The notes under the pieces are model-generated. The model searched no databases, had not been told where the DNA came from, and saw only the letters and a list, made by a program, of their open reading frames with translations. A stretch of DNA of 64,000 bases from Candidatus Moraniibacteriota bacterium. Its GTDB lineage: Bacteria > Patescibacteriota > Minisyncoccia > Moranbacterales > UBA1568. The translations under genes were made by a program, and so were the position numbers. Position 1 is the stretch's first letter, and each line of letters begins with the position of its first letter. Where the stretch lies: the NCBI GenBank assembly GCA_052034935.1, contig JBPOIB010000001.1, positions 74,746 through 138,745 of the forward strand, in the 5' to 3' direction. Below, piece by piece: positions 10,939-59,299 of the stretch.

Positions 10939-11949
10939 ATGGAAACACCCTTTCTCGGATTCTGGGAGAAACTTCCCCGGCCATTCTTTGTTTTAGCCCC
11001 ATTGGCCAATATTACGGACTATAGTTTCCGGCAGTTCATGACGCGCTACCAAAAGCCGGATGTGCTCTGGACTGAGTTCGTGGCAGCGGATGGATTGGTG
11101 CATCCCAAGGGTCGTGAAGCGCTTATCCGAGACCTCCGTTTTGATGACAATGAGCGGCCGATCGTGGCACAGCTCTTTACCAGCCGTCCAGAAAACATGT
11201 TCGAGGCGGCGAAGCTCGTGAAGGAGCTTGGGTTCGACGGAATCGATATCAATATGGGTTGTCCCGACAAGAACGTAATGAAGCAAGGCGCGGGGGCGGC
11301 TTGCATGAAGGATCCGGAACTGGCACAAAAAGTGATTTTGGCAGCGATGGCTGGCGTTCGGGCGGATGGTAAAGAACCGATTCCTATCTCGGTGAAAACG
11401 CGGCTTGGATTCAATCAGGATGACCTGGAAATGTGGCTGCCGAAAATCCTTGAGACGAAACCGGCGGCTATCACGCTTCATCTCCGGACCAAGAAAGAGA
11501 TGTCACTTGTCCCGGCGCATTGGGAGCGAATGACGCGCGCTGTCGAAATCGCGCGCGGCAGTGGCACGCTCATCCTGGGTAATGGCGATGTGAAGACAGT
11601 GGCTGAAGGCCGGCAGAAATGCGCTGAGACCGGCTGCGATGGCATCATGATCGGCCGAGGGGTATTCGGAAATCCGTGGGTATTCGACGAAACAAAAACA
11701 TCGGTAACCGTTCGGGAGCGTCTCGAAGCGGTCCTCTTGTTAACGGAAATTTTTGTTTCGACTTGGGGCGAGACGAAGAGCTTTGAACTGCTCAAAAAAC
11801 ACTTCCAAGCCTACATCGTCGGCTTTCCCGGCGCGCGGGAGCTGCGGGCTGCGTTGATGCTCTCGCATGACGGTGTGGCCGTACGGACAGTTGTTGAACA
11901 ATTTCTCGCATCGCATACTGGGCGTTCAAACGAAGTGATTCCTTTATAA
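10939..11949 (+). CDS. dus: tRNA-dihydrouridine synthase
   Basis: A FMN TIM-barrel with LAPLANITDYSFRQF, IVAQLF, GIDINMGCPDKNV, ITLHLRTK. Confidence 0.85.
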   Translation: METPFLGFWEKLPRPFFVLAPLANITDYSFRQFMTRYQKPDVLWTEFVAADGLVHPKGREALIRDLRFDDNERPIVAQLFTSRPENMFEAAKLVKELGFDGIDINMGCPDKNVMKQGAGAACMKDPELAQKVILAAMAGVRADGKEPIPISVKTRLGFNQDDLEMWLPKILETKPAAITLHLRTKKEMSLVPAHWERMTRAVEIARGSGTLILGNGDVKTVAEGRQKCAETGCDGIMIGRGVFGNPWVFDETKTSVTVRERLEAVLLLTEIFVSTWGETKSFELLKKHFQAYIVGFPGARELRAALMLSHDGVAVRTVVEQFLASHTGRSNEVIPL

Positions 11950-12007
11950 GAAAAAAACGCCCCCGATGCATGCGATGCACCGAGGGACGATGGAGGCCGT
12001 ACTTGGC

Positions 12008-13084
12008 CTAGCTGCGAGGGAGACACTTCCAAGGAATCTCTTGGCCGGCGCGAAGCGGCGTGAGCCGGGCGTCACCGAACGCGATGTCCGCCGGCAGTGG
12101 CCAGGAGTTTCGGACGAGCTGGACCAAGTCCGTATTCTTGGGGAGGCCGTAGAAGTCCGGGCCATGGAAACTCGCGAAGCCCTCGAGCACTTCGAGAGCG
12201 CCGGCCGCCTCGAATGCTTCCGCGTAGAGCTCGAGTGCTGAGAGGGCGGTGAAACAACCGGCATGGCCGCCGGTATGTTCTTTCAGATGCGCGGCATGGG
12301 GCGCTGAGTCGGTCCCGAGGAAGAAGCGGTCGCTGCCCGAAGTGACCGCACGGACAAGGGCCAGCCGATGGTGCTCGCTCTTCAGGACAGGTAGGCAGTA
12401 GAAGTGCGGCTGTAGTCCGCCGGTGAAGAGCGCATTCCGGCTGTAGAGAAGGTGCTGTGGCGTCACGGTCGCGGCCGTGAAGGGGTCGTTCGCACCGATC
12501 ACGTAGGCTGCGCCTTCGGCCGTAGTCACATGCTCGAGCACGATCCTGAGTCCAGGGAAGTCACGGCGGAGCGGGATGAGCACGTCTTCGATGAAGCGTG
12601 CTTCGCGGTCGAAGATGTCGACTGCGGGATCGGTCACTTCGCCGTGAACGCAGAGGACGAGACCCTCGCGCTCCATTGCTTCGAGCATGGGATAGATCTT
12701 CCGGATGTCGGTTACGCCGGCCTGACTGTTGGTGGTTGCGCCGGCCGGGTAGTACTTGCAGGCGACGATGAGGCCGCTTCCCTTGGCACGCCGCATCTCT
12801 TCGGGAGAGGTTTCATCCGTGAGGTAGAGCGTCATGAGCGGCGTGAAGTACACGCGCTCCCAGTCGAGCGCCGCCATGATGCGGGCGTGGTAGGTCATCG
12901 CCTCTTCGGTCGTCCGTACGGGCGGCTTCAGGTTAGGCATGACGATGGCGCGGTTGAATTGCCGCGCGCTGTAGCCGGCGACCGTTTTCAGAGCATCGCC
13001 ATCGCGGAGATGGAGGTGCCAGTCGTCGGGACGCACCATGACGATGTTCCTGGGCGTGCCGTTCTCTTCATACTGGATCTGCAT
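12008..13084 (-). CDS. pyrC: Dihydroorotase, class II (E. coli-type)
   Basis: PDDWHLHLRDG near the N-terminus, ~358 aa, and an AAAGGAG Shine-Dalgarno before the ATG. The local GC is ~64%. Confidence 0.85.
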   Translation of the reverse strand: MQIQYEENGTPRNIVMVRPDDWHLHLRDGDALKTVAGYSARQFNRAIVMPNLKPPVRTTEEAMTYHARIMAALDWERVYFTPLMTLYLTDETSPEEMRRAKGSGLIVACKYYPAGATTNSQAGVTDIRKIYPMLEAMEREGLVLCVHGEVTDPAVDIFDREARFIEDVLIPLRRDFPGLRIVLEHVTTAEGAAYVIGANDPFTAATVTPQHLLYSRNALFTGGLQPHFYCLPVLKSEHHRLALVRAVTSGSDRFFLGTDSAPHAAHLKEHTGGHAGCFTALSALELYAEAFEAAGALEVLEGFASFHGPDFYGLPKNTDLVQLVRNSWPLPADIAFGDARLTPLRAGQEIPWKCLPRS

Positions 13085-13126
13085 ATCATGCTCCTTTCGA
13101 GCGTTGGAAAAACCGGAAGGTCAAGC

Positions 13127-14125
13127 TTAGGCGAGATGCTTCTGCAGCCGTTCACTGTCGTTCACGAGGTCCATGAAGAACCGCGGTCCTTGGCGATACC
13201 AGGCTGGTCCGGAAGTGCACTGGACAGCCCGAGCGCCGACATCGAGGTAGTCAGCAGCATCGTCACCCGTGAGAATGCCGCCGCAGCCGATGAGATCGAT
13301 CTTGCTCCAGGGCGGGAGCTGCTCGAGCGTTCGTTTGATCAAGCCGATTGAAATCGGCTTCAGGATCGGTCCCGAGAGCCCGGCCCGGCCGTCGAAGGGT
13401 GTCGTTACTGGCGCACCATCCGATCTGAGCACGCGGCAATTGGCGAGCGTGTTGCTGAAGACGATCGCGCGCACGAACGGGTAACGATCGATGAGTCTGA
13501 CCATCGTCTCGACGAAACCCTCCGGCACTACTGGGACATTGGTGAAGTCGATGCCGGGGTGGGCCTGCGAGAGTGCATCGCGTTCGGATGCGGTGATGTA
13601 GGGCGAGAGCTTGATCCAGATCGGCTTCGTGAGCTGGCCGCCGCGGTGGAGCTTTTCCAGGGCGACGAGCGTCGCTTGAGCGTTCTCGCAGCTGTAGGCA
13701 TCGGGGACCTTTCCGGTATTGCCGCAGCCCCAGTTCACTTCGATGGCCGTGATACTGTCCCGGCGGTTGGCGAGCCAAACGCACATCGCGTATTCATCGG
13801 CTGAGAAAGCGGCGATGCTCGCAATGGTCGGCCGGTCGACCGGGACAGTGTCGAAGCGCTCGAGCGATTCTTCAATGCCCGGGTTCGGCATTCCGAACGA
13901 GTTGAGTCCGATTCCGTGTTCGCGAAAATCCGTCCAGTCGTCCGGCCATTGCACAACGCCATCGTTCTGAGGGCGTTCATGCTGGGTGAACGAACCGGCG
14001 ATGACCGCACCGAGCGAAACGTCACTTCGCAGGTACGGGATGAGATGACGTGGGTCCTTGCAGACGCCGGCACCAAGGATGATGGGGAGGGAAAGCGTCA
14101 GTCCGCCCACCGAGTAGGTTTCCAT
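13127..14125 (-). CDS. pyrD: Dihydroorotate dehydrogenase, class 1-like (Cys active-site base)
   Basis: IEVNWGCGNTGK matches the class-1 DHOD motif (L. lactis NLSCPNVPGK), and GCGGILTGDDAADYLDVGARAVQ matches its C-terminal FMN site. The start is placed at the ATG preceded by AAAGGAG (the track ORF begins at an upstream alternative start). Confidence 0.75.
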   Translation of the reverse strand: METYSVGGLTLSLPIILGAGVCKDPRHLIPYLRSDVSLGAVIAGSFTQHERPQNDGVVQWPDDWTDFREHGIGLNSFGMPNPGIEESLERFDTVPVDRPTIASIAAFSADEYAMCVWLANRRDSITAIEVNWGCGNTGKVPDAYSCENAQATLVALEKLHRGGQLTKPIWIKLSPYITASERDALSQAHPGIDFTNVPVVPEGFVETMVRLIDRYPFVRAIVFSNTLANCRVLRSDGAPVTTPFDGRAGLSGPILKPISIGLIKRTLEQLPPWSKIDLIGCGGILTGDDAADYLDVGARAVQCTSGPAWYRQGPRFFMDLVNDSERLQKHLA

Positions 14126-14345
14126 GGTCAACTCCTTTCGGGGTTTGGTTGTCAAAGGTCGAAACCCTCGGGAATCGAGGATTGGCGGCATTCTACCAGC
14201 TGGAATCGGACTGTCAATCAATGTGGAACGGGCATTTTCGGCCAGCATCTTTACAATCAGTGAGCGTTGCGGTAGGCTCGAGGCGTTCCTAAAGACCCGG
14301 GGAAATACCCCGGATTTGTTCTTACCCAAACGAAAGGACGAGGTC

Positions 14346-15620
14346 ATGGATACCACCGAAGTCGGCCTCGTGCTTGAAGTACGGACCACTGAAACGATTC
14401 GGCCCGAAGTGAAAGATCGGGCGAAAGAAATGCTGGCTGCTGTTTTGACGAAGGCCGGCATGACGGGCTGCTGGCGCTATGACATCCTCATGAGCGAATA
14501 TCGAGCCCTGCCGGATCCATCGCTGTATCGGATGTCGGCAGCGCTTTTGGGCGATACCAAGAGCATGCTCCATATCGCTGTTCGCTCCAGTCTCATGCCC
14601 GGCGGAGCCGTCGCTGGCATTTTGCGCCAGACGGGATTCGTCGATTTTCAGGGACTGCTCAATCGTCTCTTGCCGGCCATCGATGATGGCAACCGGTCCA
14701 ATTGGCAGCCGACTGTCGTCCGAGAAGAGCGGACATCGATGGCACCGAGGGGATTGGCCGATATCGAGGCCGAGCTCGAGAAAGAGCGAATGCAGCCGCA
14801 AGGCTCTCCGATCCGGTCGCTTCCGTTTGTAGATGGCACCGGCCGCGTGATGAGAAACGAGGATGCTCATCGGAGAATGCGGGCCATTCCGCCAAGAAAT
14901 CCGGTTCGCTCTTCGGAGCCGCATGACGTTCGTACGCCCGTGCTTCCAGCTTGGCCACCGCCTAGTCGCTTGGCTTGTCAAGACGGACCGACCTGCGGGA
15001 TGGCTGTTGAAAGAGTCGACCGGGCGATACCGGCGGCAGTATCGCCGCCTGCCTTGCATCAGAATGTCCCGAACGGGATAGAAGGAGAGACAAGCATGTC
15101 TTCATTCGACGACGAGCAACGGCTCGAACGATTTCTCATCGCAGCGGTCCGCGGTACCGCGGACGGCGTTTTTTCCGGCAAAGCGGTCACGCCGGTGGTG
15201 AAGGAGGTTTTTCCGGAGCGCTCCGGCAAAGGGCTGGTCGGGGGGCTGTTCTTCAGGCTGGAAGGTCTGAAGTGGATTACCCGCTTCGCTCCGGGGCAAT
15301 ACCAGCTGGAACGACTGTTTCTGGATGCACATCAGGAAGAGCTGGGGCATGTCAAGCTCTCGCCACGTCCGGCATTGCCGCACGCCAAACCGAAGCCGCG
15401 GAAAGCGGCCGGTAAGCCGTCGGCTGTTTCGGCAGAGCCGGCAATGTCTTCGCCGGGCACTTTCGAGGACTGGGTCAAGTCGCTCGCAGAAGAGCGTTTG
15501 GTTTTGACTGAGGCAGTAACGAGAGCAAGGGGAGCGCTCGCCGCTTTCGATGAGCGCTATCGAATCGCGCTCGGTCCGCTGCATGAACAGCTCTATCCCG
15601 TTCCGCCCGAAGCCGGCTGA
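14346..15620 (+). CDS. Hypothetical protein (no recognisable domain; Pro/Arg-rich central region)
   Basis: A 424-aa ORF in high-GC DNA. AAAGGACGAGG lies 3 nt before the ATG, and GC3-rich codon usage is consistent with coding. No motif was recognised. Confidence 0.45.
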   Translation: MDTTEVGLVLEVRTTETIRPEVKDRAKEMLAAVLTKAGMTGCWRYDILMSEYRALPDPSLYRMSAALLGDTKSMLHIAVRSSLMPGGAVAGILRQTGFVDFQGLLNRLLPAIDDGNRSNWQPTVVREERTSMAPRGLADIEAELEKERMQPQGSPIRSLPFVDGTGRVMRNEDAHRRMRAIPPRNPVRSSEPHDVRTPVLPAWPPPSRLACQDGPTCGMAVERVDRAIPAAVSPPALHQNVPNGIEGETSMSSFDDEQRLERFLIAAVRGTADGVFSGKAVTPVVKEVFPERSGKGLVGGLFFRLEGLKWITRFAPGQYQLERLFLDAHQEELGHVKLSPRPALPHAKPKPRKAAGKPSAVSAEPAMSSPGTFEDWVKSLAEERLVLTEAVTRARGALAAFDERYRIALGPLHEQLYPVPPEAG

Positions 15621-15704
15621 ATCTGGTCGCCTGTTCTCATCCCGTGTCGTAGCAAGAGCTGCGGCACGGTTTTTTTGTCGAATCTTGCGAGTTTTGGGGA
15701 GTCG

Positions 15705-15871: not shown

Positions 15872-16264
15872 ATGAGCTTCCGATCCCTGTGGACCCGCCT
15901 GGGACTGGTCGTCCTCATCGGTATCGGCATCGCCGCCGGTTGGGCGAGCTTCGGCCAATATGAGCGAAGCGTCCGGATCCAGGCCGAAATCGATACGCTG
16001 CGCCGCGAAGCTGAGCGTATCGAGCGGGAAAACGCAACGCTCTCGGAGAAAATCCAGTTCTTTGCTTCGCCCGACTTCAAGGAAAGCGAGGCAAAAGAGA
16101 AGCTCGGGCTGCGCCGCCAGGAGGAGAAGGTAGTGGCAATCGAAGGTGATCTGCGGCTCCCTCCGAAAGAAGGTATCGAAAGAGTTGACGATGGGAATAC
16201 GGCTCATATGGTTGCTTGGGATGTGCCCAATTATGAGAAGTGGTGGAAGCTTTTTTCGAAATGA
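15872..16264 (+). CDS. ftsB: Septum formation initiator family protein (FtsB/DivIC-like)
   Basis: An N-terminal TM helix, then a coiled coil (IQAEIDTLRREAERIERENATLSEKIQFFASPDF…EAKEKLGL) characteristic of FtsB/DivIC. Confidence 0.7.
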   Translation: MSFRSLWTRLGLVVLIGIGIAAGWASFGQYERSVRIQAEIDTLRREAERIERENATLSEKIQFFASPDFKESEAKEKLGLRRQEEKVVAIEGDLRLPPKEGIERVDDGNTAHMVAWDVPNYEKWWKLFSK

Positions 16265-20876: not shown

Positions 20877-22133
20877 ATGCGACAATCATCACTTTTTACG
20901 AAGACTTTGAAGACTGCGCCGGCCGACGAAGTGAGTCGCAATGCGTCGCTGCTCATCCGCGCCGGCTATGTCCATAAGGAGATGGCAGGCGTCTATAGCT
21001 ACTTGACGCTGGGACTCCGGACGCTCGAGAAAATCATCTGTATCATCCGGGAAGAGATGAATGTGGCTGGTGGCAATGAGATTCTCATGCCGGCGCTCCA
21101 GGACAAGCAACTCTGGCAGAAAACGGACCGCTGGGACGACACCAAGGTTGATAACTGGTTCAAGACCGAGTTCAAGTCCGGTGGCGAAACTGGCCTCGGC
21201 ATCACGCATGAAGAGCCGGTGACGAATATGATGCGCGGCCATATCGCTTCGTATCGTGACTTGCCGAAGTCCGTCTACCAATTTCAAACGAAGTTTCGAA
21301 ATGAGCTCCGAGCCAAGAGCGGTATCATGCGCGGAAAAGAGTTTCTCATGAAAGATCTCTACACCTTTGATCGCAGTGATGAAGAGCATCAGAAATCGTA
21401 TGTCCGGGTGCGCGAGGCCTATTTCCGAGTCTTCGATCGGCTTGGAATCGGTGAACGAACACATGTGACGTTCGCTTCGGGTGGAATTTTCAGCCGGTTT
21501 TCCGAAGAGTTCCAGACGGTTTCTGATGCGGGCGAAGATGTCATCTATGTCCACGAACAGAAAGGCATCGCGCTCAACAAGGAAGTCATGACCGATGACG
21601 TACTCACCGAGCTTGCTGTCGAACGCAAGGATCTGGTGGAGCGAAAATCGATTGAGGTGGGGAATATTTTCCATCTTGGAACGAAGTTTTCCGAACCGCT
21701 CGGTCTGACGTATAAAGACGAGTCGGGTGAATCACATCCAGTGGTGATGGGCTGCTACGGTATCGGCCCAACTCGGCTCCTTGGTACTATCGTCGAAGTA
21801 CTGGCGGACGAAAAAGGCTTGGTCTGGCCGAAATCAATTGCGCCATTCCAAGTCCACCTGCTCTCGCTCGGGGCAGACGAAAAGGCAGCTGAGATTTATA
21901 CCCTCTTAACGAAGGCGGGGATTGAAGTTTTGTATGACGATCGGGATATGCGTGCCGGCGAGAAATTCGCCGAATCGGATTTGCTTGGGATTCCATACCG
22001 CGTTGTTGTTGGTAGGCGTTCGGTCGAGAGCGGCGAAGCAGAAGTGAAATTGCGGACCGGGGAGCGGACAGATACTATCGCGTTTGAAAAGCTTATTGAT
22101 TATTTCCATACCGCGTATGTCAAAGGCGAATAG
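20877..22133 (+). CDS. proS: Prolyl-tRNA synthetase, short bacterial-type form lacking the INS editing domain
   Basis: Class II motifs (FRNELRAKSGIMRGKEF, GCYGIGPTRL) with a C-terminal anticodon-binding domain. At 418 aa it is much shorter than ~570-aa bacterial ProRS. Confidence 0.85.
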   Translation: MRQSSLFTKTLKTAPADEVSRNASLLIRAGYVHKEMAGVYSYLTLGLRTLEKIICIIREEMNVAGGNEILMPALQDKQLWQKTDRWDDTKVDNWFKTEFKSGGETGLGITHEEPVTNMMRGHIASYRDLPKSVYQFQTKFRNELRAKSGIMRGKEFLMKDLYTFDRSDEEHQKSYVRVREAYFRVFDRLGIGERTHVTFASGGIFSRFSEEFQTVSDAGEDVIYVHEQKGIALNKEVMTDDVLTELAVERKDLVERKSIEVGNIFHLGTKFSEPLGLTYKDESGESHPVVMGCYGIGPTRLLGTIVEVLADEKGLVWPKSIAPFQVHLLSLGADEKAAEIYTLLTKAGIEVLYDDRDMRAGEKFAESDLLGIPYRVVVGRRSVESGEAEVKLRTGERTDTIAFEKLIDYFHTAYVKGE

Positions 22134-22839
22134 TGTTGCAGTGAAGAAGGGTGAGCGGATTATTATCTCGCTCGGCGGCTCGCTTTTAGTTCCGGAGTCG
22201 ATTGACGACGTGTTTGTCGCGAATTTCAAGAAGTTCATCATTGCGCACATCAAGAAGGGGTATCGTTTTATTCTAGTGACGGGTGGCGGACGGACGGCGC
22301 GCAAGTATATTGAATCGGCCGCGACAGTGACGAAGATCAATGATGAGGATCGTGACTGGCTAGGCATTCACGCGACCCGCATGAATGCACATCTTGTTCG
22401 GACGATTTTCCGCGAATATGCCCATCCGCGGATTAACACGAATCCACATGATTTGGAGGATTTTTACTCAGCACCGGAGCCGATTCTGGTCGCCGCTGGC
22501 TGGCGTCCGGGGTTTTCGACGGACTTTGATGCGGTTGTACTCGGGAAATACCTCGGAGTGAAGCGTATCGTGAACCTCTCCAATATCGAGCGTGTCTATG
22601 ACAAGGATCCTCGCCATAATAGCGACGCGAAGCCGTTCGATCGGTTGACGTGGAAGGAATTCCGAAAAATCGTCGGCAAGAAATGGAATCCGGGCATGAA
22701 TGTCCCATTCGATCCGATTGCTTCAGCGATGGCTGACGAAGAAGGGATGGAGGTCGCAATCATGAACGGTGGCGACCTTGGCAATGTGACGGGGTATATT
22801 GCTGGAAAAAAATTCGTCGGTACACTTATCCGGAACTAG
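22117..22839 (+). CDS. pyrH: UMP kinase
   Basis: An amino-acid-kinase fold with IISLGGSLL, ILVTGGGRTARKY. The start is chosen at MSKAN and overlaps the proS end by 17 nt. The alternative is a later GTG. Confidence 0.75.
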   Translation: MSKANSVAVKKGERIIISLGGSLLVPESIDDVFVANFKKFIIAHIKKGYRFILVTGGGRTARKYIESAATVTKINDEDRDWLGIHATRMNAHLVRTIFREYAHPRINTNPHDLEDFYSAPEPILVAAGWRPGFSTDFDAVVLGKYLGVKRIVNLSNIERVYDKDPRHNSDAKPFDRLTWKEFRKIVGKKWNPGMNVPFDPIASAMADEEGMEVAIMNGGDLGNVTGYIAGKKFVGTLIRN

Positions 22840-57904: not shown

Positions 57905-59299
57905 CTAGTAAGAATCCTGCAGCTCGCGGGGGAGCGAGTGATGGAAGAGGGCGAGGAAACCGCCGACGACGATCGCGAGGATCCACTGGACCGGGGTATT
58001 CTTGAAGACATTGTCGGAGAGGCTTGCGATGACGAGGGTCGCGAGGAGGAGTAGGAGAAGGACTGCCATGTTCTTCAGGCTGTGGCTCGGGGAAAGGCGC
58101 TTCACCTGGATGATCGGAAAGGCGAAAGTGACGAGATAGAGCACAAGGACACCGAGACCGACCAGGCCGCCTTCGACATAGAACTTCACGAAATCGTTGT
58201 GGGACTCGTTCGAGCCGAAACGTTCGCCCCGCAGCTGCTCGGAGGAGATGCGAAAGGTGTCGAGGCCGCTGCCGTAGCGGACTCGCTCTTCAAGTTGGGT
58301 CTTCAAGATCATGTCGTGCCAGAGGTTTTGCCGCCAGACGATCGATGAGTCGGCCGTCGGATTGAGCGCTTCGACGACGCGCTCCTTCACGGCCGGAACG
58401 AAAGCGGTGAGCACGATCGGGAGCAGGATGAGCGGCAGGAGGAGAAAACGAAAGCGCCAAAGCGCGAGGAGGAGTAGGAAGACAAAGAGCGCGACCCACG
58501 CGATGCGCGCGAACGTGAGGAGGAGCGTGAAGAGGACGAGGCTGATATAGAGGAGCGTGAGGAGTCGCGCACCGTCTTTCCGGGCGTAGACGATCCCGTA
58601 GATGGTCGCGACGGCGGCCACGGTGAAGAGGTAGAGACTGAAGACATTCGGATGGCTGAAGGTGCCGAAGATGCGGAGAGCGGAAACGTTCTCGTCGGAG
58701 AGTCCGATGCCGAAGGCGAACTGGTAGAGTCCGAAGGTAATCGGGATGAGACTTGAAATGAAGATCGCCATGAGAAGCCGCCGGTAATCGCGGTAGCGCT
58801 CCACACTCGCATAGGCGATGAAGCCGACGACGAAGAGGTCGAAGATGCGAAGCGCTTCCTGAGCCGTGCTCGACGGTGAGATCGAATAGACGAGGGTGCC
58901 GAGACCCCAGGTGATGACGAGGCCGTAGGGGACGACGAGCGCATAGCGGGTGAGCGCGCGGGCGTGGAGGAGGATGAAGACGATGCCGAAGCCGGCGATG
59001 CCGAGGCCGAGGAGCTGGGAAAGCGAGAGCGACAGTCCGAAGAGATCGAGCGCGAGGTATTGGGACGAATAATCGAGCGACATGCGGACCACGATGAGCG
59101 TCATGAGGAGCGCGAGCGGATTCCGGAAGAGCGCGACAATCCCGGCGATGCCCGCCATGAGCGCGACCGGGAGGAGAAGTGAGACTTTGGCGAAAACCGC
59201 GAGGAGTGCGAAAAGCGAGAATAAGGCGAGTGAAACGAGATAGGCGCGCGGGTCGGCCCAGATCGGTGTCTCTTTCAGCGCGGAAAGCTCGGGATTCAT
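57905..59299 (-). CDS. O-antigen ligase / Wzy_C-family polytopic membrane protein
   Basis: ~12 TM helices, with RIFGTFSHPNVFSLYLF matching the Wzy_C motif R..G.....H.N..S.YL. Confidence 0.7.
   Translation of the reverse strand: MNPELSALKETPIWADPRAYLVSLALFSLFALLAVFAKVSLLLPVALMAGIAGIVALFRNPLALLMTLIVVRMSLDYSSQYLALDLFGLSLSLSQLLGLGIAGFGIVFILLHARALTRYALVVPYGLVITWGLGTLVYSISPSSTAQEALRIFDLFVVGFIAYASVERYRDYRRLLMAIFISSLIPITFGLYQFAFGIGLSDENVSALRIFGTFSHPNVFSLYLFTVAAVATIYGIVYARKDGARLLTLLYISLVLFTLLLTFARIAWVALFVFLLLLALWRFRFLLLPLILLPIVLTAFVPAVKERVVEALNPTADSSIVWRQNLWHDMILKTQLEERVRYGSGLDTFRISSEQLRGERFGSNESHNDFVKFYVEGGLVGLGVLVLYLVTFAFPIIQVKRLSPSHSLKNMAVLLLLLLATLVIASLSDNVFKNTPVQWILAIVVGGFLALFHHSLPRELQDSY

Follow-up and report, generated by a model that had tools for sequence, protein, structure and literature searches.

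A GC-rich pyrimidine locus of a Moraniibacteriota genome as two probable units: a pyrD-pyrC operon with a Burkholderiales-type pyrC, and an unrelated neighbouring gene

The usual description of the Candidate Phyla Radiation (CPR, Patescibacteria) is that its members cannot make nucleotides. How, then, did pyrC and pyrD come to lie side by side in a GC-rich block of a Candidatus Moraniibacteriota genome? PyrC converts carbamoyl-aspartate to dihydroorotate and PyrD converts dihydroorotate to orotate, steps 3 and 4 of de novo uridine monophosphate (UMP) synthesis. The block (positions 11950-15700) lies in a stretch of 64,000 nucleotides of contig JBPOIB010000001.1, hereafter the window, and also holds a gene for a protein of 424 residues, open reading frame (ORF) 424. 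A first-pass annotation of the window had proposed the block as a candidate for horizontal acquisition. We find that the block probably consists of two independent units, namely a CPR pyrD-pyrC operon with a captured Burkholderiales pyrC, and ORF424, which is unrelated to it. The foreign-island reading is thus only one-third right.

The product of pyrC scores 434.1 bits against TIGR00856 (pyrC_dimer; cut-off 292.95), with residues 14-353 spanning profile positions 2-339 of 341, and carries the PDDWHLHLRDG motif. It has the length, metal-ligand motifs and loop motif of the type II family and is 53% identical to E. coli PyrC, relative to which it is extended by about ten residues at the N-terminus. 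The two proteins match column for column at DDWHLHLRDG, CKYYPAGATTNS, VHGEV, LEHVTT and GTDSAPH, and the HxH pair, the carboxylated-lysine position, the ATTNS loop, HGE, EH and GTDSAPH of the window protein all line up with the E. coli enzyme, in which we take H16, H18, carboxylated K102, H139, H177 and D250 to be the metal ligands and catalytic residues and T109-T110 to belong to the mobile loop. From this alignment we infer that the window PyrC is a Zn-dependent type II dihydroorotase.

The best matches of this protein are a few CPR relatives (73-88% identity), followed within 8000 hits by the housekeeping PyrC of GC-rich Burkholderiales (65-71%), including Methylibium, Caldimonas, Comamonas, Acidovorax, Limnohabitans, Variovorax and Aquabacterium; for the first six of these genera a range of 67-74% was also obtained. 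A copy that is 71% identical sits in a typical proteobacterial setting, on a contig of 70.7% GC with LysR, ABC-transporter, MFS and GGDEF/EAL neighbours. Unlike such copies, the window pyrC resides in a Patescibacteria genome downstream of a class-1-type pyrD, and its GC content at third codon positions (GC3) reaches 0.78, where the proteobacterial copy has about 0.95. In a neighbour-joining tree (341 columns, 200 bootstraps), the clade formed by the window, the related loci L052, L002, L003 and L008 and four metagenomic proteins is joined to Burkholderiales with a bootstrap of 97. E. coli PyrC and five other CPR clades, 39-59% identical to the window PyrC, fall outside this grouping. For comparison, L008 and Methylibium PyrC are 74% identical, and Comamonas and Methylibium PyrC 72-76%. 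This placement, which conflicts with the host lineage, indicates an old inter-phylum capture of pyrC from a Burkholderiales-type source. The direction of transfer, from Burkholderiales into CPR, is suggested by the ubiquity of this PyrC type in Proteobacteria. Loci L022 and L006 have the same synteny as the window, but their PyrC is only 36-40% identical to the window protein and host-like in GC3. The tree and the synteny are most simply read as an in-place replacement, in which an older CPR pyrC gave way to the Burkholderiales-type gene before the lineages of the window, L052, L002, L003 and L008 separated.

The tree of PyrD, unlike that of PyrC, agrees with the host lineage. PyrD matches PF01180 (DHO_dh) with 94.6 bits against a gathering score of 27 over residues 5-319 and carries the motif NWGCGNTGK. 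Its start codon agrees with that of homologue P0001, and the protein begins directly at the beta-1 motif, with no N-terminal membrane helix, as befits a stand-alone soluble enzyme. Homologues split sharply into about 87 proteins scoring 177-770 bits (36-100% identity) and canonical dihydroorotate dehydrogenases (DHODs) scoring at most 79 bits. In a neighbour-joining tree the CPR sequences form one clade against the canonical DHODs, with a bootstrap of 100. Within this clade the window groups with L002, L052, L003 and L008, mirroring the PyrC tree, and the two trees are broadly congruent in this part. When a profile of the clade was run against 185,579 species genomes, 46 loci were recovered, nearly all of them labelled Patescibacteria. 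Because it belongs to a CPR-only clade, PyrD is best read as a gene of the lineage that was not imported from the pyrC donor, and it would have been retained beside the captured gene.

We further note that five loci of this set (L004, L006, L007, L008 and L046) are titled 'uncultured Bdellovibrionales bacterium' yet are syntenic with the window gene for gene; these labels look misassigned. In addition, L038 is a 2.6-kb contig with a CPR-type pyrD and pyrE in a 'Synechococcales' (cyanobacterial) bin, and is probably a binning contaminant.

The arrangement of the two genes is itself conserved. In about 24 of the 46 PyrD-clade loci pyrC directly follows pyrD, which points to a recurrent Patescibacteria module that, in the Moraniibacteriota-like lineage, sits between dus and ftsB. 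The genes around the block include suf, rrf2, dus, ftsB, ppiC, htrA, DUF5656, mreBC and aminoacyl-tRNA synthetase genes; this gene content and the nearest named relatives, Candidatus Moraniibacteriota, assign the window to the Parcubacteria group of Patescibacteria. The order ppiC-ftsB-pyrD-pyrC-dus-rrf2-sufC recurs in L002, L003, L008, L022 and L052, where PyrC and PyrD identities to the window lie within the range of the flanking genes. Since at least five relatives have the pair at this site, the operon is old there and not a recent, private acquisition. In the window, pyrD and pyrC form a self-contained bicistronic operon with its own promoter and terminator: both promoter hexamers are conserved in L002, L052, L046 and L008, an AAAGGAG Shine-Dalgarno sequence precedes each gene, and the intercistronic gap is 42 nt (Table 1).

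This operon is nonetheless dispensable. It has been lost from L051, the locus with the closest flanks (Dus 87%, PpiC 76% and Rrf2 83% identical), where the order is dus-ORF423-ftsB and there is no trace of pyrC or pyrD. The window segment absent from L051, from ~11.96 to ~14.24 kb, coincides exactly with the operon plus its promoter and terminator. The operon has also been wrecked in L046, where only 26 codons from the start of pyrD and 41 from the end of pyrC survive, on either side of a low-GC insert. At this site the pair is absent from L051 and destroyed in L046, and it is present in L002, L003, L008, L022 and L052. Taken as a whole, the cassette would have been inherited after the capture of pyrC, possibly with exchange between relatives and with loss from some.

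ORF424 is transcribed divergently from pyrD-pyrC and has a separate history. It is absent from L002 and L052 and present without pyrD-pyrC in L051, whose ORF423 (P0122), at the same locus, is 68% identical, with conserved N- and C-terminal parts and a variable middle. L046 has a 30%-identical homologue across the pyr remnant, on the opposite side. This independent presence and absence, together with the host-like codons described below, sets ORF424 apart as a unit of its own. The first-pass annotation saw no recognisable domain in its product, and we likewise obtained no match in Pfam, NCBIfam or PHROG. Among 1.84 billion proteins the family has 38 representatives, some with the N- or the C-terminal part only. 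The AlphaFold2 model (mean pLDDT 78.5) has confidently predicted domains and consists of a beta-alpha-beta-beta-beta-alpha unit at residues 8-117, a disordered, Pro-rich linker at 150-250, a winged helix at 255-335 and a long helix at 373-409, and structure comparison gave generic winged-helix fold matches only. Its homologues show ORF424 to be a genuine gene that belongs to a small CPR family; our best guess from the model is that it encodes a DNA-binding protein unrelated to the pyr genes. As a CPR-specific winged-helix protein it would be evolving fast, and its gene would have come in by an insertion of its own. The region upstream of ORF424 is nearly identical in the window and L051 despite the 68% identity of the proteins, and on this conservation it may be a regulatory leader.

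Base composition, which first drew attention to the block, distinguishes the same two units. Window GC averages 54.6%, or 53.2% without its two GC-rich stretches. The rise in GC reported for the block is real, beginning at ~11.85 kb and ending at ~15.55 kb in a 300-nt sliding profile. It is smaller and less even than the ~62-65% (~64% for the block) first given: the block as a whole has 60.5% GC, its pyrC-pyrD part 62.0% and pyrC alone 63.2%, and the profile runs at 59-64% across pyrC and pyrD, dips to 54-55% at 14.05-14.5 kb and returns to ~60% over most of ORF424. Against a reference set of 22 housekeeping genes (GC3 0.60 +/- 0.044, maximum 0.69), pyrC with its GC3 of 0.78 has a codon-usage distance of z=4.3 and pyrD, with GC3 0.74, of z=3.3. 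ORF424 (GC3 0.64, z=-0.8) is host-like in its codons and GC-rich at codon positions 1 and 2 only, its GC being raised by a Pro/Ala/Arg/Gly-rich amino-acid composition and not by codon choice. The strong GC3 bias ascribed to the block is thus confined to synonymous sites of pyrC and pyrD, with ORF424 and the intergenic region host-like, so that atypical composition does not extend over the block as it would over a genomic island. Nor is the block the sole compositional outlier. A second, larger GC-rich stretch at 51.3-59.3 kb has 60-62% GC, GC3 of 0.75-0.83 and a codon usage that deviates as much as that of pyrC (z of 2.2-4.2), which makes such patches a feature of the genome and not a peculiarity of the pyr locus. 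The GC3 excess of the pair recurs in L052, L002, L003 and L008 and is missing from the pairs of L022, L006, L009, L014 and L015.

Table 1. Coordinates of the features in and beside the block (window positions)
Feature	Position	Strand	Evidence
dus, tRNA dihydrouridine synthase, conserved left flank	10939..11949	+	Pfam Dus E=3e-57; syntenic in L002, L003, L008, L022, L046, L051, L052
Intrinsic-terminator-like hairpin and T-run directly after pyrC stop	11960..11986	-	12-bp stem, 7 GC pairs
pyrC, type II (E. coli-type) dihydroorotase, 358 aa	12008..13084	-	TIGR00856, motif alignment, tree
pyrD-like, soluble class-1-type flavin mononucleotide (FMN) dihydroorotate dehydrogenase, 332 aa	13127..14125	-	Pfam DHO_dh, tree, alignment
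5'-untranslated motif CTTTGACAACC, 11 nt, upstream of pyrD Shine-Dalgarno	14147..14157	-	identical in window, L002, L052, L046
Sigma-70-like promoter of pyrD-pyrC, TTGACA, 16 nt, TG-TAGAAT	14190..14217	-	11/12 consensus positions plus TG extension
Conserved leader/promoter region of ORF424, ~100 nt, GC hairpin 14297-14313	14245..14345	+	near-identical to L051
ORF424, lineage-specific protein, 424 aa, not in pyr operon	14346..15620	+	homologues, AlphaFold2 model, codon usage
Intrinsic-terminator-like hairpin after ORF424	15642..15669	+	12-bp stem, 8 GC pairs, then T7
ftsB/divIC, conserved right flank	15872..16264	+	Pfam DivIC, synteny

These observations bear on three other accounts of how the block arose. 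That the whole 3.7-kb block is one recent foreign island from a single GC-rich donor is very improbable. The GC and GC3 of pyrC and pyrD lie clearly above those of host genes, PyrC has its Burkholderiales affinity, and the locus closest by its flanks lacks the pair, all as such an island would predict. These points are set against the host-like codons and independent distribution of ORF424, the CPR-only clade of PyrD, the shared position of the operon in at least five diverged relatives, in which flanking synonymous sites are near saturation, and the absence of an integrase, a tRNA gene or direct or inverted flanking repeats. The single-island reading is thus already largely refuted, and horizontal acquisition stands for pyrC alone. 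It is more difficult to set aside an exchange of the cassette, in which the ancestor shared by the window and L051 had lost ~11.96-14.24 kb and the window lineage then regained it by homologous recombination from a somewhat GC-richer Moraniibacteriota relative that already had the Burkholderiales-type pyrC, the cassette circulating among CPR. We regard this as possible, if on the whole unlikely. It would explain why L051 lacks exactly the cassette while sharing a nearly identical ORF424 leader, and it would also account for the GC3 anomaly of pyrD. Discordance of PyrD and PyrC identities with flank identities in L008, L003 and L022 points the same way. So do four-fold degenerate sites, where pyrC and pyrD of the window reach a composition-corrected identity of 0.27-0.38 to L052 or L002, against a mean excess of ~0.15 over nine flanking genes, which are near saturation between the window and its relatives. 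However, constraint on codon usage in a strongly biased gene yields high synonymous identity equally well, at the protein level PyrC and PyrD are not clearly closer to their L052 and L002 counterparts than the flanking gene products are, no donor was identified, and simple loss in L051 is equally parsimonious. The higher four-fold identity of the cassette fits both synonymous constraint and a common ancestor younger than that of its surroundings. Exchange is further favoured by the pairs of L013 (737-2814) and L017 (10001-12078), which have GC3 of 0.6-0.73 in hosts with a flanking median GC3 of 0.35-0.39. With this much stronger contrast, they are better candidates than the window for recent cassette transfer between CPR genomes.

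If, on the other hand, the GC3 excess were the product of gene-specific selection or biased gene conversion, composition would say nothing about transfer. The offset is about +0.1 to +0.2 in five lineages with host GC3 of 0.50-0.63 and flanking synonymous sites almost saturated, and the CPR-native pyrD shares it, as this account predicts. Yet the pairs of L022, L006, L009, L014 and L015 have no offset, which means that the excess is not intrinsic to the genes, and the pyrC phylogeny shows transfer independently of composition. We consider this account unlikely. The reading we prefer remains that of a CPR operon whose pyrC was captured, with ORF424 beside it as a separate unit.

Several points nevertheless weigh against this preferred reading. 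pyrD has the GC3 anomaly of pyrC yet no Burkholderiales relative, which a single capture of pyrC leaves unexplained. The PyrC tree was built by neighbour joining from a proteobacterial sample made up of the best matches to the query and E. coli only; in it the CPR clade comes out as sister group of the Burkholderiales sampled, so that neither nesting within them nor, with it, the direction of transfer is formally established. The motif patterns of the genome search behind the term 'CPR only' had been taken from the CPR clade itself. PyrD falls under every NCBIfam cut-off for DHODs (87 against 301 for PRK02506, 85 against 270 for TIGR01037 and 96 against 269 for PRK07259), and the equivalent of Lactococcus lactis K43, a Lys in all five canonical DHODs aligned, is Gly44 in all 46 CPR PyrDs. 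Because it misses both the curated cut-offs and the canonical active-site Lys, PyrD is a likely rather than a certain DHOD. Lastly, tblastn with the E. coli proteins found no pyrB, pyrE, pyrF or pyrI in the 64-kb window, and its Pfam-annotated genes include no carbamoyl-phosphate synthase (carAB) or other pyr domain.

The active site of PyrD can be compared with two characterised classes. The best solved-structure match of the clade profile is L. lactis DHODA (class 1A, PDB 1DOR/2DOR), at an identity of only ~25-30%. Like DHODA and the fumarate-dependent DHODs of trypanosomatids, PyrD is a soluble, single-subunit TIM barrel of ~310-330 residues. It keeps the Cys catalytic base in N-x-x-C-x-N (L. 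lactis C130) and the equivalents of Asn67, Asn127, Asn132, Asn193 and Lys164; C134, N75, N131, N136, N225 and K172 are invariant or nearly so in the 46 CPR sequences. Unlike DHODA, the CPR proteins have extra insertions (profile length 330 against 311 residues), a Gly at the Lys43 site and a new invariant Lys in the beta-1 loop. This residue, Lys23 in the motif GAGVCK, is absent from the canonical DHODs aligned. K43 of L. lactis is the active-site Lys at the end of strand beta-2 that contacts FMN and orotate, and we infer from the alignment that Lys23 takes over its role. The class 1B enzymes (PyrD/PyrK; L. lactis DHODB, PDB 1EP1) have a comparable profile score of 97 bits, provide the top NCBIfam match (PRK07259) and likewise use a Cys base. 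They differ in that no pyrK-like gene adjoins pyrD in the window or is evident in related loci, and in that the canonical sequences aligned do not share the relocation of the Lys. No PyrK-type FAD/Fe-S partner occurs among the annotated window genes or among the 25 most frequent neighbour families listed. The CPR-only clade may even be a functionally distinct class, its Lys moved from beta-2 to the beta-1 loop, that in fermentative Patescibacteria without respiration uses another acceptor or acts as an orotate reductase and travels with pyrC in an exchangeable cassette that repeatedly recruits a foreign pyrC. We offer this as speculation and consider it doubtful.

In which direction does the pair work? 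It is most likely anabolic, with PyrD acting on dihydroorotate and orotate biosynthetically. This reading rests on gene neighbourhoods: elsewhere in CPR the PyrD clade is found in pyrD-pyrF-pyrE operons (L028 and L030-L032, Saccharibacteria-type, with OMP decarboxylase and phosphoribosyltransferase confirmed by Pfam), in a pyrD-pyrC-pyrF arrangement (L029) and next to pyrB (L020), and PyrD is repeatedly tied to a bona fide dihydroorotase, even after the xenologue swap. That no pyrB, pyrE or pyrF adjoins the pair was correctly observed at first pass and holds for the whole window; the suggestion that the pair might be metabolically odd does not survive its recurrence as a CPR module. The contrary proposal is that the pair runs in reverse, from orotate through dihydroorotate to carbamoyl-aspartate as in orotate-fermenting clostridia, and provides a fermentative CPR cell that lacks respiration with an electron sink or with aspartate and nitrogen from host-derived orotate. 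Both reactions are reversible by established enzymology, the active site of the clade is re-modelled, and the window, besides lacking the three pyr genes, encodes a fermentative set with 2-oxoacid:ferredoxin oxidoreductase and ADP-forming acetyl-CoA synthetase. Against these points stand the operonic links of the PyrD clade to pyrF-pyrE and pyrB, the absence of any ureidosuccinase-type or PyrK-type gene adjoining the pair, and the class 1B character of the known orotate reductase, which has a PyrK subunit. We judge the reverse pathway improbable.

A number of candidate elements of the locus were considered and rejected. A mobile-element explanation finds no tRNA, integrase or flanking repeats: the neighbourhood annotation holds no integrase or transposase, repeats are short and at chance level only, and the only tRNA genes in the window are at 45.7 and 47.2 kb. 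A regulatory RNA was dismissed, since an Rfam search of the block gave no match and the pyrD leader around CTTTGACAACC has no supported consensus structure (-1.7 kcal/mol). A possible role for the motif CTTTGACAACC itself is that of an operator. A third conserved partner gene was excluded by a Pfam census of 141 ORFs neighbouring the pair, in which no family occurred in more than four and no third recurrent partner appeared. An NYN-domain gene co-transferred with pyrC was likewise discarded, the downstream genes in L012, L013 and L017 being of phosphatase or endonuclease families.

Other features were noted around these loci. The insert in L046 (10084-12285, opposite strand) holds a gene for a C-5 cytosine DNA methyltransferase (Pfam E=3e-69) and an ORF of 267 residues without family; by this content it is presumably a restriction-modification cassette that destroyed pyrD-pyrC. 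L052 carries between dus and rrf2 a 215-residue ORF without Pfam family (12250-12897) that has no counterpart there in the window. Lineage-specific insertions seem to favour the dus-ftsB neighbourhood as a hotspot. At 3264-7824 of L060, a distant member of the ORF424 family (P0246, 607 residues) comes immediately downstream of a gene for a VirD4/TraG-like coupling protein (DUF8128, TraG-D_C) and close to DUF5663, a context that hints at a link between this family and CPR DNA-transfer machinery. Elsewhere in the window, a 240-residue amino-acid-kinase-family gene (PF00696, Pfam level only) at 22117-22839 on the forward strand has the size of UMP kinase (pyrH) and may encode it. The second GC-rich stretch comprises eight ORFs without Pfam match at 51.3-57.8 kb, one with a weak endolysin-like PHROG match (E=1.5e-5), followed by a Wzy_C O-antigen-ligase-like gene at 57905-59299.

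Patchy biosynthetic genes and inter-phylum gene capture are a known pattern in CPR, and the locus conforms to it: the genome is small, the pathway scattered and partial, and one gene of proteobacterial ancestry. It departs from the pattern in that one partner of a conserved two-gene operon has apparently been swapped in place and the other has stayed lineage-specific. A full-text literature search found no paper on CPR pyrC or pyrD. Overall the finding is mostly ordinary and does not overturn current understanding; what merits note is the CPR-only DHOD clade with its relocated Lys, the apparent in-place xenologous replacement and the gain and loss of the cassette. The relocated Lys sets off a DHOD subfamily that is uncharacterised and goes unnamed in curated models, a point relevant to both CPR metabolic reconstruction and DHOD enzymology. 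The locus is a clean example of an operon with one partner apparently replaced by an inter-phylum xenologue and the other lineage-specific. The conserved pyrD-pyrC module, together with pyrF-pyrE or pyrB elsewhere, suggests that part of the radiation keeps or re-equips steps of de novo pyrimidine synthesis.

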